From Diplonema papillatum (Eukaryota): a stretch of DNA of 64,000 bases. The stretch lies in assembly GCA_030068145.1 (NCBI GenBank), contig JAPJBO010001134.1, positions 1,408-65,407 of the forward strand, in the 5' to 3' direction. The translations under genes were made by a program, and so were the position numbers. The notes under the pieces are model-generated. The model saw only the letters and a program-made list of their open reading frames with translations. It had not been told where the DNA came from and searched no databases. Below are positions 1 to 10,603 of this stretch, one piece after another (the stretch's first letter is position 1; each line of letters begins with the position of its first letter).

Positions 1-844
1 GAACCCGATACAAGCTCTATCGCGCACCGTTCGTCCTCAGGGAATGTTGGCCCTTCGTGAACCCGGTTCACTCGCTCGATTCCCCCTGGCAAACACCCGC
101 AGGTGCATCCTTCTGGCAAAAGAAGGATATGCCCCCATTTCCTGAGGTGGGGTGCGCGAGGTCGTTCTCCGTCAAAAAGCATTGAACGAGCTCCATTCGT
201 GCGGCGTTTCAAAAAAAAATCGATGCAGGGATTCCGGTGGGGAATGTTGGATTGCCGTTTTTGAGGCAGACGACTGCCACCCCATGCGCATGCTTCATGC
301 TGGGAGGGGAAGGAAAATGGGCCTAACGCAAGAAAAAAAAAGGGGGTGGGGATTTAAAAAAAAGCCGAAACCGCCGCAGGAGGTAGGTCGCATTCCGGAG
401 TGTCTCTCGGCCGATTCGTCGCGCCGACTGTGCGAAACGCTTTCCGACGGTACCGCACACTGTCTGCTTCTGATTGAAGCAAAGCAAGGGTGGGCGGTAG
501 GTCAAGCTGCAAAAGCACAGGTCAGGGAGGACGAAGTGCACGGGAGACTACCCGGGCGACGCATGGGAAGCAAAACCAGCATCAAATACAACCGCAGAAT
601 ATTACGAGCTGGGCCCCCCCTCGTTTTGTAGGGGGTCAGTCAGCAGGGGAAAATGCTCCTTTTCTTTCCCATGTGATGTGAATCTTGTCGGCAAGACTCT
701 GTCGGGGCAAAGAAAAGACAACGAAGTCGCCAGCCGTGCGCTCTTATAAAGCCGGCGTGCTATCTTCGTTCACAGGTCTGCTGCTGCAAGCCGTAATGGA
801 TGCTGTTTACGAATGCTCTACTTCCCAACTACTCAACTGCGGCC

Positions 845-3306
845 TTATCCTCAGCAACCACCTTGTTCCGCGCTGGCACCGCTTGACTTCGTCTGTCGGG
901 TGTGTTTGTAAGATATGGTCGGACCGGTATGTGAATTCGTCGAAGTGGACACCACGTTGGGCATGGCCAAGTCGTAAGTACCCTCCCGCATTGTATTGCG
1001 CCGATATCCACGAAGTGTAGGGGACCTGGATTATCAGCCTCCCCGGTTAGCATGTCACTGGTGACACCTGGATGAACCTTCTCCTCTTCATCCAGGGGTC
1101 ACCGGTGGAAGGAATGCATGTCGATCCGCTGGTCAGAGAGGTTCAGAACTGGGGTGAATGCACTAGTTGTGAGTAAGTGGTTGGGATTCGACGCTGGCGG
1201 CAAGCCTCGAGGCTCGAACAAAAGCCGTCCCGAGGAGTCTTGGTGCGGCGAGTACACTTCGTGCGGTTCCTGTGCACGGGGTGCCTCGGGCTTTGTATCT
1301 TTGGACCACGAGTGAGTCGTGCAGCCAGGTGCGCGAGCTTGGAGCCGTTTTGCTTGTTGGCAAACACAGCGAGTGTAACCGTAGGCCGCAAGGTAGGTCA
1401 CTAGGCAGAGCAACACGAGCGAGCTGTTTCATAGTTACGTTTTCTGAGACGCGTGCGAAAGCACGCATCTTTTCTCGTTGGTTACCCTAAATTTGTAGCC
1501 CGCAGCCGGTAATAGTTGTACATGACGAAAACATACGACGGTGAGGGTAGTCATCTGTTCAGCGACGGTTGGATGGATACCGACGGTGTCGTCGAAGTGC
1601 TTCTTGGTAGCGCCGCACTGCATCGCGACGCCGACGCCTTGAAGGATCTCGCCCGCGTTGGGAGACGTGATGTGGAAGCCGACAACACGCTCGGCCTCTG
1701 ATTTGAGGGTGATCATCTTCACGTAGCAGTTCGAGGCATCGCGGTGCGGGACGGTCCACTCCAGCGGGGTGAAGTACGCGTGGTAGATCTCGAGGTTCTC
1801 CTCGCCGAACTTCTTGATGGCGTCCTCCTCCGAGTACCCGCAGACTCCGTATTCAATGGGCGTGAACACAGTCGTCGGCACCATGTTTGAATAGTCCATC
1901 AGGTTTGACTTCTTCCCGTACAACCTGCCAGCTAAATACCTACCCGACTGGATAGCCACCGGGGTAAGCTCAAGCCCCCCTTCGACGATGTCACCAATTG
2001 CGTACACATTTGGCACTGACGTCCTCTCACATGCATCGACCGCAACCTTTCCAGACCGCGACAAGGTGATGCCGATCTCCTGCAGGCCGATGTTGGTGTC
2101 TGCCGTGCGGCCCATCGCGAAGAGCACAGTGTCGCACTCTTCTTTGTGCCCGTTGCTGTAGGTCACCACCTTCTTGCCGCTGGCGAGCTGCTCGACCGAA
2201 GTAGGCGTCACACCGCGGACGACCTTCGTGCCCTCGTGCTCCATCTGCTTGACGATAAGCTCCGCAATCTGCTGGTCGAACCCGCGAAGTGGAATGGACC
2301 GCATCATGACGATAGTCTCGTAGCCCAGCCCGGTAAGGAACCCGGCGCATTCCAAGGCGATGTACGATGCGCCGACGACGACAGTCTTGCCAGGCGCCTG
2401 CTCGAGAGAGAAGATGTCGTCGGAGGTGATGCCGTACTCTTTGGCTCCCGGAATTTCGGGGTACGACGGGCGTCCGCCCGTGGCGACGATGATGCGGCGA
2501 GCCGTGATTGTCTCCTTCGCGCCCTTCTTGTTCGTGCACTCAACGGTGTGGCTGTCGACCAGTCGGCCCAGCGCGTTCTTGTACTTGACGTTGCCGGTTC
2601 GCATTTCGGCGACCGACCCGAAGTTGATCGACTTGATGTGCATCTGGATGTTTTCCCTGACGGTCTCCCACACGGTGGCACCCAGCTTGGCTGTTTCCTC
2701 CGGAGTACCGTATGCTGGAGACAGCTTGACCGTGTCGCGCGTGATGGCGGCCGTGTGGTACAGCTTTTTGGGAATGCACCCAACATTGACGCATGTCCCA
2801 CCGAATCCCCACTTCGTGCCAATCGGAGATGGCTTGACGAAGTCGAGGCAGCAGACTTTCGGTGGCAACCCGGAGTCACCGCCTCCAGGGGTGAGGTACG
2901 AGGCTGCCGCCTTCGAAACAGCCATGCCTCCAGAACCACCACCGATGACGATCAGGTCGAAGTCGTATGAGTGCTCCTCTGGTTCGTCGTCGTCTACGAA
3001 CTTGACCGACTTAGCCTGCGACTCTTCGTAGAGACGCAGGAACTCGAGGACGTCGTCGCAGCCGCCGAGGAACATATCATTTTTGGTGACCAGCGGGCTC
3101 GACTTGTGGGTGTTGTTGTACTTCACGGTCTGCTCCGCAACCCACTTCTGGAACTCCGGCTTGACCATGTCGTTGATCTCAGCCGTGAAGTCGCCCGGGT
3201 ATTTCTGCGCGACTTCTTGGGCGCGCTTGGCGGCTTTTTCGAAAAAGCCGCATCCGGACCAGCCGGTGATCACCAGCTTCACCGGCTTCTTCGCTGCGCC
3301 GCTCAT
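845..3306 (-). CDS. Selenoprotein thioredoxin/glutathione-reductase-like (TGR-type). An N-terminal monothiol glutaredoxin-like domain is fused to an FAD/NAD(P) pyridine-nucleotide disulfide oxidoreductase. Two exons: 3306..1537 and 892..845 (TAA stop at 847..845).
   Basis: The ORF at 1435..3894 contains the GGGSGG FAD motif and the CVNVGC redox site. It also has an IGGCDD-like Grx motif (FLGGCDDVLEFL) and an SGCGFF active site. It has an HPT(V)AE dimer-interface motif, ending ...TTLTV. Directly after that codon the minus strand reads GTATGT, a 5' splice donor. At 892..845 the minus strand reads cag|ACG AAG TCA AGC GGT GCC AGC GCG GAA CAA GGT GGT TGC TGA GGA TAA, which translates to TKSSGASAEQGGCUG*. 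This matches the mammalian TrxR C-terminus TKRSGASILQAGCUG. The ATG at 3306..3304 (MSGAAKKPVKLVITGW...) is the most plausible start; the ORF sequence upstream of it is probably 5' UTR. Confidence 0.8.
851..853 (-). other. In-frame UGA read as selenocysteine, penultimate codon of the GCUG motif
   Basis: The minus strand reads GGT TGC TGA GGA TAA (G C U G stop). This position is diagnostic of Sec-containing animal-type TrxR/TGR. Confidence 0.7.
893..1536 (-). other. Spliceosomal intron (about 644 nt) of the TrxR/TGR gene; donor GTATGT, acceptor CAG
   Basis: The donor GTATGT starts at 1536 on the minus strand. A pyrimidine-rich tract (tcttacaaacacacccgacag) precedes the acceptor. Exon phase is consistent (phase 0 on both sides). 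Confidence 0.65.
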
Positions 3307-5024
3307 CGCGCGAAGCTGCTGGGTCTTGGCACAGCCGAGGAAGGGGTTGTTTCCCCAGTGCAGTGTTGGCGCTCTCGACGCTTTCCCAGCAGAGCCGACG
3401 AACCCGGATTGACCTCGGCTTCGACTCGAAACTGCGAGCGCCGCCCGCCGACCGATGCGCAGCAAGCTGGCCACGCTGACTGCAAACCCACCCTCCTTTA
3501 AATGACCTCTGTGACCCTTTCGTGGTTGTTTTAAAGCTTCGACAAGGGCAAGGGAAAACCGCTCGTAGCATGCAGTGGGTGGGCAACCTGAGCTCTGGAA
3601 CCGACTGCGAGCTTTTTGACAGCAGCAGCAATAGTACGCTAACGGTGCCGCTGGCCAAGCGCCGATAACCGGAAACGGCCTCCGTGATGGCGATGCCGAG
3701 TCCGCGAAGCTCTGACCTGCACCCGGGGGTACCCCAACTGGATAGCCACCGGGGTAAGCGGGAGCACGGCACCCTTCCGCAATAAGAATGTCCGGCCGAC
3801 AACGGTGCCGAACCCGCCCCTGCAAGTGGGGGGCTGGGAGCAGAGACATCGAAAATCGAGAAAACGGTCTCCCTCCCGCGTTTTTAGTTTGCACTCCGAG
3901 AGGAAACGTTCATGCTCGTCGTTGACCCAGCTGGTCTTGCGCTCTGCTGTCCCGCATGCAAGAAAGTGGGCAGAAGGAGAGAAGTGAGTGTGGGGAAGAT
4001 GCAAACGATGCAACTATAGCCCGCGTCCAGAATAGGGACACCGAGACTGAAACGACCGAGAACTGAGGGAGGAATCGCAAAAGGTGGGGGTCAGGGCAAG
4101 GGGCCGAAGCGAGGGTCCCATACCCTTTGTAGAAGGCTAGTACGAAGGCGAAGGAGGGTGAACAAGTACCTTTGGCGCAGCGAGCAGACGAGTGGTGGCA
4201 CCCGCGGCGAACGTGGTACGACAATAGTAGTATAGTGCTGGGCAGCCGCGTACCAACTTTGCCGTTTTCAGAGTGCCGATTTTTCGCACCAAGGCAGGAG
4301 AGGAAATTCATGTTCAGGCAGAAACACTGGCTTTCAGGGAGGTGTGGAGCTAGGCTTTTTACCTGTCGCCGGTCCAGAGGAGTAAATACGTTGGCGGGGG
4401 CTTCACACGTGCGAAAAAAAGGGCCTGAAACAAACGGTACATTTTCAGAATCCCGCGGTGCCTAGTGTGAAGATTCATCCGCAAACGCTTTCTACTAGCA
4501 CCTAGTTGGAATCTTTGGTGTGAGTCGCAGCTTCCTTTTTGCCGGCAGCTGGACAATCTTCGCTCAGGTCTCCGGCGACAGAATAGGCAGCTTGGGAGTG
4601 CGGGGCATGTATCTTCTCTGTATCTCAAATACCCTCGTCCTTTGACGGAAGAGGGGGGAGAAAAACGTCCAGCTAGAGACTTGGGGTTTGAGAGGATTGG
4701 TCTTGTTTTTGCCAGCGAAGCCAATGAGCGCACATATTAAGCGCACAAACGCGCAGCAGAAGGGCGACTCGACGAGGGGACCGCGCCTCGGGGCCGAGAA
4801 GGGCCGGGAGTGTGTAGGGAAGCGAAAACACCAGATTTTATTTGCAGCTACATCAGAACGCGCGGACAATTACACCACAGGTGCGATCGGGCCAGGCTAG
4901 GACGTGTTCTTCGGAGGCCAGGAGCTGGAGAAGGGGCAGGTAGGCAAGTATATGTCAGAGGAAGATGTACTCTTTCGCAATTTGGCAAGAGTGGACACCT
5001 GCCGTCGTGTGTGTCCAAGCTCTC

Positions 5025-5627
5025 TCAGAAGCGGCGGGTCGTTCTCACGACAGCTACGCGTCGTGGGCGCGGCGCGCATACGGATCGACGAGTCCTGACG
5101 ACGGCAACTACTGGTCTCGTCTGGGTCCGGGTCACTGGGCGTACTCTCCGAGTTCTCACGACGGTGACACGAGGTCTCGTGTGTCTCACTGGCACCACAC
5201 GGCGCGTGCGTGTAACAGGAACTACTCTACGTCGTGTAGTGGTGGCTGGTCTCGTCCGGGCAACGGGTGCTACACGGCGTCTTTTAGTCTGTCCAACACG
5301 TCCATCGTGGTTCAGGTCTTTGTGGGTCAACCGCTCTGCGGTGCCGACAACCTTCCGCATGAGGCCGTTCGACTTTTTGTGCGGGGCGCGCCTTCCATAC
5401 GGCACGGCCCCCACGCGGCCGTCGCCGTTCAAATCACGACCTGTCCTTCTTTCGACGTTGCGTACGCCTGCATTGACTTTGCTACCTGTCGTCCTGCGAA
5501 CGGGTGCCCTCGTCGTTGTTGCTGTAGTTGTTCTGTACACTGGTTTCCTTGCGTACCCCACGCGGCCGTCGTGGTTGAGGTCCTTGCCGGTGCGCGTTTC
5601 GAGCTTGCGGACGAGTTTGTTTAACAT
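5025..5627 (-). CDS. Small basic protein, paralog A of a three-member family. It has three TG(K/R)DLN(H/G)DGRVG repeats (dockerin/EF-loop-like DxNxDGxV) followed by an Arg/Thr/Val-rich tail.
   Basis: ORF 5025..5684. The conserved start MLNKLVRKLETRTG is shared with the ORFs at 17665..18312 and 18989..19588. The ATG is at 5627..5625. Confidence 0.5.
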   Translation of the reverse strand: MLNKLVRKLETRTGKDLNHDGRVGYARKPVYRTTTATTTRAPVRRTTGSKVNAGVRNVERRTGRDLNGDGRVGAVPYGRRAPHKKSNGLMRKVVGTAERLTHKDLNHDGRVGQTKRRRVAPVARTRPATTTRRRVVPVTRTRRVVPVRHTRPRVTVVRTRRVRPVTRTQTRPVVAVVRTRRSVCAPRPRRVAVVRTTRRF

Positions 5628-6039
5628 TTTCTGCCCTTCTTTATTTGCTTTTTTTACGGCTACTTTTCGGTGGAGAAAAAACACCTGCGTGTGGCGTCTG
5701 CTAGCAGCATGTGAACTGAACAGAAACAGTTGCTGTTTCTACGGCAGCTTCTGCCGTTCTGATACGAAGAGGTAGGCTCTTGCGAGTTGCGGGGATTGAT
5801 TGTACCTCCCCGAGTCGGCGGCAATTGCTGTGGCAGTGTCGACAGCTGAACGCCGACGGACCGCGCAGTGTGTGGCAAAGGAGGTGACACGCGTTTGTCC
5901 CGGTGATTCTGAACTGTTTCCCCCACGTGTCGCACTAGGAAGGAATGTTTGTGCGAGGGGATGCGCTCGGTGGTCAGTGATGCCGGAAATACGTAAAAAA
6001 TCAGCTGGCATGCCATGCGGCTTAAGAAACGCTCGGAAT

Positions 6040-9000: not shown

Positions 9001-10300
9001 ACTGCAGTTGCGTCAACGTATCGCACGCAGTGTCCGCGCACACGACGCAAGGAGAAGATGTTTGAGCACGCAACGCACACTGCATCAAACCGACGCCGAC
9101 TGAATCTGTGCCCATGGTCACCTCCACGAAAGAATTGGCCAAGTTGGCGGCCATGGCCTCCTTCATGACGTTGGCGAAGCTCGACTCGGTCCGGAAGGTG
9201 ACGTTCCAGTACAGCTCGAGCTCCCGCGCCCAGAGGCTCCACCCGGCCTGCCCGTCGGGAGTGTTCGCGGTGAACAGCCACGGCTTCGTCTGGGCCGCCA
9301 CGCCCTGCAGCGAGTGGACGGCCAGCACCTCCCCGGGCGACATGCCGGTGGTGTTCACCAGCAGCAGCTCGGCGGACGCGTTGGGCCCGGCGCTGGCGGC
9401 CGGGAAATAGTACTGCGTCCACTCGTCGGAAGCCGAGGCGAGGCTGGCAACGCAGCAAACCGCTGCGAGACTGGTTCGCATCGCGACCTGAAAGGCGCTC
9501 TGATAATCCCCGAGGCGGCTGCGTGTCTTGCAAAGTGCTGTCCACGCCCGGTTTAGTTTCTCCTTTAGTGTGGTTACCGCGTGTAGCGAGGCTGGTCCGG
9601 ATCCCGTGACTTCGGGAATAGGGTTGGCTTGAGGATTTGAGGATACATGGGTGTTTTCGTTCCTATATGTTGCTTTTCGTCTGAAAGCTTTTGAGTCCAG
9701 CAGTGGTTGCGAGCCCATCGATTGCTTGATCGGGGGTAGGCGACCTCTCACAGTTTCACTGAGGGAGTTGATGCACCACGAAAGTCAATAAGAGGTTGGG
9801 TTAAATGCACAGAATCTGTGGCGATAGTCTGGCGCGGTTATCTCTTTGCACGTGATGTGTCATGCTTTCGCCTCTTTTAGCTCGTCTTGATCGTCGCGCT
9901 CAGGCGCGCGCTTGGTGTCTCGCTTCTTCTTCGACTGCTCGCCCAGGTTCATCGGTTGCGCTTCGATTTCTGCTTCTTCACGGCGCTTGGGCGATGCTGC
10001 GCTTCGACGGGCGCTCCACTCACGCCGTTTTGTTCGGCTCCGACGTAGAGCTCGTTCGCTGCTTCTTCGCTCGCGTCGGTGCCGTCTTTTTGACCCTCGC
10101 CGCTGGTTTCGATGTTGATTCGATAAGAGACCTTCATACAGCCAGCAGGGTGTGGTTGGTTCAAAGAAAAAGTCAAGCTTGACCTCGCCCAAGCTCGTTT
10201 ACATTCCCTTGCGCTGGTGATATCAACGTGTTCTTACTTCTCCCTTTCTTCAAGGCAGTTCTCGCCAGACAATACCGAGCAGAAAACTCCTAGTTTCCTG
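6040..10300. repeat. Segmental duplication unit A (about 4.2 kb), paired with unit B at 13060..17200
   Basis: Long blocks are shared with unit B, with indels in the non-coding parts. Examples: 6070-6560 versus 13090-13880, 7050-7170 versus 14240-14360, the 7847-9751 ORF versus the 14897-16588 ORF, and 9750-10300 versus 16980-17200. Confidence 0.6.
7847..9481 (-). CDS. Secreted, heavily N-glycosylated protein of unknown function, copy A (signal peptide MRTSLAAVCCVASLASASDE)
   Basis: ORF 7847..9751. The real start is probably the M at 9481..9479, which begins a hydrophobic signal peptide. Multiple NxS/T sequons are present. It is about 95% identical to the ORF at 14897..16588. Confidence 0.55.
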   Translation of the reverse strand: MRTSLAAVCCVASLASASDEWTQYYFPAASAGPNASAELLLVNTTGMSPGEVLAVHSLQGVAAQTKPWLFTANTPDGQAGWSLWARELELYWNVTFRTESSFANVMKEAMAANLANSFVEVTMGTDSVGVGLMQCALRAQTSSPCVVCADTACDTLTQLQYKPAGDSRNATYEAFYAATPLTSFRQRVSILQKPATWPSLADYAAFCRCPVYFVPSFSPVPSMVAEILKYTSAEGKGAVTLGYGPDEFDTVSALSESGNGLLASDWALNVATMTNYGMGAVPQFSRRHVQPKPSAQQHAQQQADDDNRHVIAFVMTDGDNLQWLDNTFATSAQWYGCPRRGAVPVGWTLSVSSRDVAAPIYHYLQRVKTQNDTFVGSVSGDTYTYIDEMPDKWATIFTNESASNLKADGIAVVNVMGSTTDLATAAAAAVPYFRAGMQHVLYYPYSGYSNLNGNNTYVSTPEYQGWLLGARYCLWQGQHNVSELIGLLNSQAMDPTSSAGYSVIPVHVWSHTYDDIVSVVNGLNTTRTRVVSLDEYAQLINRAQ

Positions 10301-10603
10301 CCCGATTGCTAGGAACCCAGTGAGGCGCGTTGGCTTGCTTGTTCTGCATGCGCAGATGCAGTGCATACCTATGTAGTCGGCAATTGTGCGAGCGCTGCTG
10401 AATGATTACTTCTCTTACTGCCTGTTCTATCCTAAGCAGTAGCAACGCACCACTCTGCAGCGTTCTTGCACCAGGACGTATGACCCCCATCCGAAAGCAA
10501 AAGAAGAAAAGGAAACGACTTTTGGCCTGACACCTCGAGTCAAATCGTGAAGGAAACGAGGGCAACCCACGCACGAGAATACGACTCGTATGCATTGTAT
10601 ACC

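Follow-up and report, generated by a model that had tools for sequence, protein, structure and literature searches.

We analysed a 64,000-nt stretch of Diplonema papillatum DNA (contig JAPJBO010001134.1, positions 1,408 to 65,407; henceforth the window), in which a minus-strand gene at 845..3306 is, by its sequence, a high-Mr, animal-type thioredoxin reductase (TrxR) gene of nuclear two-exon structure. Diplonemids are among the most species-rich groups of marine protists and are sister to the kinetoplastids, and high-Mr TrxRs of the selenocysteine (Sec) type are widespread. We consider it probable (roughly 0.78) that the gene encodes a homodimeric, flavin adenine dinucleotide (FAD)- and NADPH-dependent high-Mr TrxR with an additional N-terminal domain of monothiol glutaredoxin (Grx) fold, and that its in-frame UGA codon is recoded as Sec. 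The pre-mRNA would be spliced at 1537|892 and the penultimate codon UGA (853..851) would be recoded to give a C-terminal Gly-Cys-Sec-Gly arm; electrons would reach this arm from the other subunit's CVNVGC/FAD centre and go on to thioredoxin, possibly also to the fused Grx-like domain. Insertion of Sec would further need a selenocysteine insertion sequence (SECIS) in the 3' untranslated region (UTR). The enzyme thus proposed is of an ordinary selenoenzyme type, and the missing SECIS is the sole element with potential for surprise. Positions given below are those of the window, and its features are read on the minus strand.

The coding sequence, rebuilt as two exons, reproduced to the base every coordinate of an earlier interpretation made from the letters alone (henceforth the sequence-only reading), which had proposed a 3306..1537 / 892..845 split, an intron of about 644 nt and a UGA at 853..851. 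Exon 1 (1537..3306; 1770 nt in frame, codons 1-590) starts with the ATG at 3306..3304 and ends ...ACC CTC ACC GTC, directly before the donor GTATGT (1536..1531). The intron (893..1536; 644 nt, GT..AG, 54% GC) runs from GTATGT to an acceptor end CCCGACAG at 893, and is followed by a terminal mini-exon of 48 nt (845..892), which encodes TKSSGASAEQGGC-U-G-stop and thereby holds the last 15 codons on an exon of their own. Its codons are ACG AAG TCA AGC GGT GCC AGC GCG GAA CAA GGT GGT TGC TGA GGA TAA (i.e., T K S S G A S A E Q G G C UGA G TAA), with the inferred Sec codon at 851..853, then GGA (Gly), and the terminal TAA at 845..847; the segment GGT TGC TGA GGA TAA (859..845) accordingly spells Gly-Cys-UGA-Gly and then stop. 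The GC content at third codon positions of exon 1 is 79%, and the overall GC content of the intron and 3' flank is 54-55%. As the sequence-only reading had remarked, the mechanically called open reading frame (ORF) at 1435..3894 continues past the donor into the intron, which the ORF listing bears out. It had also allowed for an alternative Cys-encoding C-terminal exon, and we found none in any frame of 1..1540.

Up to the Cys, the spliced product has 603 aa and matched NCBI KAJ9443039.1 ("Thioredoxin reductase SEP1 [Diplonema papillatum]") with 100% identity and 100% coverage. The deposited model of that protein already contains the 1537|892 junction, but its translation stops at the UGA. P0121 (786 aa), an older EukProt model, goes no further than exon 1, closing with ...TTLTV, and is joined to an upstream neighbour, the ORF 5025..5684, which encodes a repetitive protein with GKDLNHDGRVG-type repeats. 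Pfam assigned Pyr_redox_2 (PF07992; aa 116-455, E 4e-56) and Pyr_redox_dim (PF02852; aa 476-587, E 2e-28) to the product, and these matches, together with those to PDB entries, give the class I pyridine nucleotide-disulphide oxidoreductase fold with a dimerisation domain that is proper to the TXNRD type. The best solved relatives were rat and human TrxR1 (3EAN: E 1.6e-163 over residues 106-603), with an alignment that runs through ...TVTKRSGGDILQSGC to the C-terminal ...TVTK(R/S)SG....GC and in which the mini-exon pairs with ...VTKRSGGDILQSGC of rat TrxR1; the structure 5W1J of a thioredoxin-glutathione reductase (TGR) matched at E 2e-163, aligned from residue 70. The N-terminal redox centre Cys-Val-Asn-Val-Gly-Cys of high-Mr TrxRs is present as TGC GTC AAT GTT GGG TGC (2776..2793) and is invariant in 12 diplonemid homologues. 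Since the product aligns end to end with TrxR1 and equals KAJ9443039.1, its identification, which agrees with the reductase proposed by the sequence-only reading, is far beyond chance. If UGA is indeed recoded, as the sequence suggests, KAJ9443039.1 should end GCUG, not GGC.

In front of the reductase module lies a Grx-fold domain of about 100 aa (3007..3306), with a single Cys in G-C-G-F-F, an SSP at the cis-Pro position and a GGCDD. Residues 1-~105 had no Pfam match, and the Glutaredoxin model missed them even at E<=10. A profile of 11 diplonemid N-terminal domains matched the N-terminal domain of MDH1B (E 6e-4) and glutaredoxins of Synechocystis and E. coli (E 1e-3 to 0.04), aligning the invariant Cys with the first Cys of the Grx motif CPFC and GGCDD with the Grx glutathione-site motif. 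The active-site motif, C-G-F-F or in relatives C-G-F-H, has only one thiol, position +3 being neither Ser nor Cys. An AlphaFold (AF2) model of the domain (pLDDT, the predicted local confidence score, 82) has the b-a-b-a-b-b-a Grx topology, and a Foldseek search with it returned axonemal MDH1B-type domains as best matches (template-modelling scores, TM, 0.76 and 0.68), followed by glutaredoxins and thioredoxins (E. coli Grx1: TM 0.61/0.75). On this model the domain is best described as a divergent monothiol (C-G-F-F/H) Grx-fold domain. The sequence-only reading had called the enzyme TGR-like, which holds for its architecture only: a domain of predicted Grx/thioredoxin fold is fused to a TrxR, and it is one that the Pfam Glutaredoxin model does not recognise and whose CGFF is monothiol.

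Strong evidence for a Sec codon came from comparison with other diplonemids, namely three genomic orthologues from ENA assemblies (L001, L002 and L003) and a transcript contig (L004). The three genomic genes are interrupted at the same codon boundary by introns of 90, 70 and 117 nt, respectively, each of the form GTATG...ACAG and each followed by CAG|ACN AAG TCC AGY GG. ... TGC TGA GGA TAA, and their intron-blind gene calls end ...TT(V)C.., running into GTATG. The same C-terminal end was uninterrupted in the transcript contigs L004-L007; a metagenome scan for further diplonemid TrxR transcripts gave only the already known L004 contig as a close match. In the five species (D. papillatum and L001-L004) TGC TGA GGA TAA is invariant, whereas variation, mostly synonymous, affects 9 of the 12 codons ahead of TGC. 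The Gly-Cys-UGA-Gly-stop that the sequence-only reading had placed on a separate mini-exon is thus found both in our reading of the gene and in its relatives. Transcriptome-derived diplonemid homologues, including that of Hemistasia, all end ...TK(S/A)SGxxAxxGGC and hence have a stop codon at the place of Sec. A high-Mr TrxR that is cut short ahead of Sec, with neither a Cys-Sec nor a Cys-Cys pair, cannot reduce thioredoxin, and the conservation of Gly-stop behind a true stop would then be unexplained. Taken together, the sequence comparison makes it probable that the UGA is decoded as Sec.

Several results weigh against this reading, and most of them concern the SECIS. The sequence-only reading had placed the element below plus-strand position 845, a 3' flank that is 844 nt long in the window (1..844) and in which no canonical SECIS was found by Rfam, by a custom pattern scanner or by a covariance model. 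Rfam cmscan at E<=10 (window 1..1600, the L004 3' UTR and the L001 3' region) and Rfam at gathering threshold (the window and L001-L004) returned no SECIS. These negatives get little weight because the control failed: the E<=10 scan (800-nt search) missed the textbook SECIS at 2320..2376 of L016, a polyadenylated TrxR mRNA that ends GC-UGA-G-stop and whose element reads AUGA-C-GGCGCGC-UUACAAA...GCGCGCC-C-GA, a miss that likely reflects E-values multiplied over 4227 families. The scanner (NUGA, helix II of >=7 bp, AA, GA, helix I) ranked the true L016 element first and found canonical AUGA elements in L018, L019 and L021; in 1..844 it gave one marginal match against a shuffle mean of 1.36, i.e., nothing above background. 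That match (GUGA..GA at 70..21), with a 2-nt bulge and 4 unpaired nt beside the 3' GA, was no better than shuffles and was rejected. The covariance model, R1, was built from four canonical control TrxR SECIS elements, which it scores at 45-53 bits, and is narrow, all four being of AUGACG type; it gave no minus-strand match at E<=10 in 1..3400, nothing above 10.5 bits in the whole 64 kb, and nothing above 10 bits in L001-L004, L017 and L020. At two motif look-alike sites (described below) where relatives have a 3' UGA, the window moreover reads UGU (719..718) or UGC. Neither tRNA-Sec nor other Sec machinery was found in the window, an absence that is uninformative in 64 kb.

The sequence-only reading had itself judged its SECIS candidates to be weak, correctly so, and neither of the two survived. 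The first, around 718-770, corresponds to a hairpin at 705..786 whose 5' arm CCUGUGAACG (776..767; GUGA at 773..770) resembles the [A/G]UGACG SECIS core of relatives. Against the core consensus UGAN/KGAW (PMC3753652), however, its GUGA-A (773..769) faces U-G-U-C (720..717): on the 3' side, CGUUGUC (723..717) offers GU (719..718) in place of the required GA. The AA of its apical loop lies ~24 nt from the GUGA, where ~10-13 would be expected, and the segment 700..790 has a minimum free energy (MFE) of -26.3 kcal/mol against a shuffle mean of -24.4 (z = -0.63), no better than background. The second, an AUGA...CGAU structure around 215-300, has no helix beside AUGA/CGAU (205..305: z = -0.40). Both are no more stable than shuffles and lack the 3' GA.

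If no canonical SECIS lies in these 844 nt, the element should be further downstream or of non-canonical form. The search space was short: the contig that carries KAJ9443039.1 (65,407 nt) exceeds the window by 1,407 nt, so that the sequence may continue past window position 1. In kinetoplastids, the distance from UGA to SECIS is 200-1100 nt, and standard patterns miss some of the elements (PMC1557815); for Leishmania, distances of 800-1100 nt are reported. An element outside the window, or a lineage-specific non-canonical one, would thus resolve the matter; it is least likely that the SECIS has decayed and the enzyme is truncated, because UGA-GGA-UAA is intact.

The 3' regions of the relatives offered leads towards such an element. 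A 5' motif, C-rich-U-[A/G]UGA-CG, is common to all five diplonemid 3' regions (window 776..767; UTR positions 932 in L001, 164 in L002, 663 in L003 and, as AUGA, 170 in L004) and matches the AUGACG core of the canonical control TrxR elements. In L004 it faces UUCUGA, forming the AUGA/UGA internal loop of a hairpin (2165..2250; z = -3.5) that is SECIS-like except that its helix II is very long and an apical AA is missing. A second block of 17-20 nt, UAAYACCCUUGAUGGUG, is perfectly conserved in L001, L002 and L003, where it occurs once per locus, 973, 288 and 715 nt past the stop (L001 8850..8862, L002 8142..8154, L003 8637..8649), in TrxR UTRs that are otherwise unalignable; tblastn detected no significant conserved coding sequence between the TrxR genes and these RNA blocks. 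The block is absent from the whole window, where CGUAAUAUUCUGC...UUUGAUGCUGG (576..606) is a weak look-alike, of uncertain homology, of it and of the L004 3' strand GAUAACUAUUCUGA. For the block itself RNAalifold predicted only a small CACC/GGUG hairpin (-3.8 kcal/mol). Combining the GUGA motif and the UGAU of the block into a single SECIS was rejected, the inner segments of L001 and L003 folding at only -4.0 and -2.7 kcal/mol. A reading of the block as a K-loop or C/D-box small nucleolar RNA was rejected as well, since L002 and L003 do not preserve the boxes and terminal stems (manual analysis). Separately, a 17-mer, UCCUUGUGAG[A/U]UGUGAG, is common to L003 and L001 (8614..8630); in L003 this 17-mer stands at the head of a SECIS-like hairpin (10270..10345) with a well-formed GUGA / helix / GAAG / GA layout, 2.35 kb past the TrxR stop and shortly before a WD40 gene. 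These pieces did not assemble into one structure valid in all species, and we treat them as leads rather than as a SECIS.

One way to read these leads is that diplonemids, D. papillatum included, may decode the TrxR UGA with a SECIS that deviates from the canonical model: its core would be GUGA, an apical AA would be missing from the usual distance, and it would either carry large insertions or be bipartite, the C-rich-UGUGACG and UAAYACCCUUGAUGGUG blocks of the relatives being its parts. Such an element would explain why pattern and covariance-model searches failed in all five species; we hold this only tentatively and think it rather unlikely. Another reading, in which the window itself contains a non-canonical SECIS built around the GUGA of hairpin 705..786 (773..770), perhaps with a distant 3' partner such as UUUGAUG (586..580), appears improbable. 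It draws on the 5' motif shared by all five 3' regions and the control SECIS elements, on the L004 hairpin with its AUGA/UGA internal loop, and on a helix-I-like CAGCA/UGCUG pairing between the flanks of 773..770 and 586..580. Yet the local hairpin has the defects listed above (no 3' GA, a misplaced AA, background stability), the distant pairing would enclose ~186 nt without a helix II, the equivalent inner segments of L001 and L003 fold as weakly as stated, and RNAalifold support for the conserved block is weak.

Finally, the UGA could be a true stop in D. papillatum, the enzyme ending Gly-Gly-Cys and the SECIS having decayed to leave a truncated or Sec-less reductase; although the lack of a detected SECIS in 844 nt, the U or C that the two motif look-alikes have in place of the A of the relatives' 3' GA, and the deposited annotation terminating at UGA speak for this, we think it highly improbable, given that TGA GGA TAA is identical in five species on a mini-exon under clear coding constraint, that established biochemistry makes a TrxR without a Cys-Sec or Cys-Cys pair inactive towards thioredoxin, that Sec loss normally passes through a Cys codon (TGC/TGT) whereas here TGA is retained, and that only 844 nt were searched while the motif homologies are weak.

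Several further observations concern the gene and its surroundings. The D. papillatum intron is 5-9 times longer than those of the three related genomes (70-117 nt), and it contains a near-perfect inverted repeat (1056..1107; MFE -31.2 kcal/mol, z = -4.46, a stability reached by none of 200 shuffles), whose arms are unique in the window and absent from the mature mRNA; given the greater intron length, the repeat may be an inserted element or a small-RNA precursor. It was rejected as a SECIS, being spliced out and having its GUGAC/GUCAC arms in Watson-Crick pairing. At 699..721, 146 nt past the stop, a polypyrimidine tract precedes a second CCCGACAG, identical to the final 8 nt of the intron; a downstream transcript could be trans-spliced at this site, or the site could serve as an alternative cis acceptor and give a 20-codon, Sec-less tail (SLADKIHITWERKGAFSPAD-stop). 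The ~15 nt after the TAA (window 844..830, L001, L002 and L004) are partly conserved (TAAG..YGCAGUKGA / GCACUGA / GCGGCC), which could reflect a termination-context or Sec-redefinition-type element, or chance. Elsewhere in the window, 13166..13284 matches 5.8S rRNA above the Rfam gathering score (53.1 bits, E 3e-10, model positions 25-154); amid otherwise protein-coding-looking nuclear DNA, this could be an rDNA fragment or a dispersed copy.

The sequence evidence implies that diplonemids probably use selenocysteine in a TrxR-type enzyme. A full-text literature search gave nothing relevant on selenocysteine, selenoproteins or SECIS elements in Diplonema or diplonemids. Diplonemid TrxR genes have been reported without mention of Sec ('seleno' occurs 0 times in that paper), and trypanosomatids are described there as having no TrxR altogether (PMC7052976). 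A Sec-containing TrxR in diplonemids, set against the loss of TrxR in trypanosomatids, would bear on the divergence of the thioredoxin and trypanothione systems within Euglenozoa. The lack of a standard SECIS in five diplonemid TrxR 3' regions also makes these genes a test case for the lineage coverage of prediction models.

Among known systems, mammalian TXNRD1 (3EAN, 1H6V, 2ZZ0) shares with the D. papillatum enzyme the Pyr_redox_2 and dimerisation domains, CVNVGC and the ending ...TVTK(R/S)SG......GC-UGA-G-stop. The D. papillatum gene differs in its Euglenozoan origin, in its extra N-terminal Grx-fold domain of ~105 aa and in having the C-terminal 15 codons on their own exon; compared with the control TrxR mRNAs L016 and L018, no canonical type-II SECIS was found in its 3' flank. 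TGRs (TXNRD3; Schistosoma 2X8C, Echinococcus 5W1J) likewise fuse a thioredoxin-fold N-terminal domain to a Sec-type TrxR module, and their Grx C-terminal motif xP-V-...-GGCDD aligns from residue 70 (E 2e-163). By contrast, the D. papillatum domain goes unrecognised by the Pfam Glutaredoxin model, has C-G-F-F/H instead of C-P-Y-C, and has MDH1B-type axonemal N-terminal domains as its best fold matches. Emiliania huxleyi SEP1, from another lineage, is also a high-Mr TrxR of a protist and has Sec as its penultimate residue; the NCBI name SEP1 was taken from this selenoprotein on grounds of similarity. Within Euglenozoa, the kinetoplastid sister group has the selenoproteins SelK, SelT and SelTryp, with Sec near the C-terminus in SelK and SelTryp; the kinetoplastid genes reported in PMC1557815 are intronless. 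The D. papillatum TrxR resembles SelK and SelTryp in its predicted C-terminal Sec, whereas its gene, unlike the kinetoplastid ones, is split by an intron. Some of the kinetoplastid SECIS elements are atypical.

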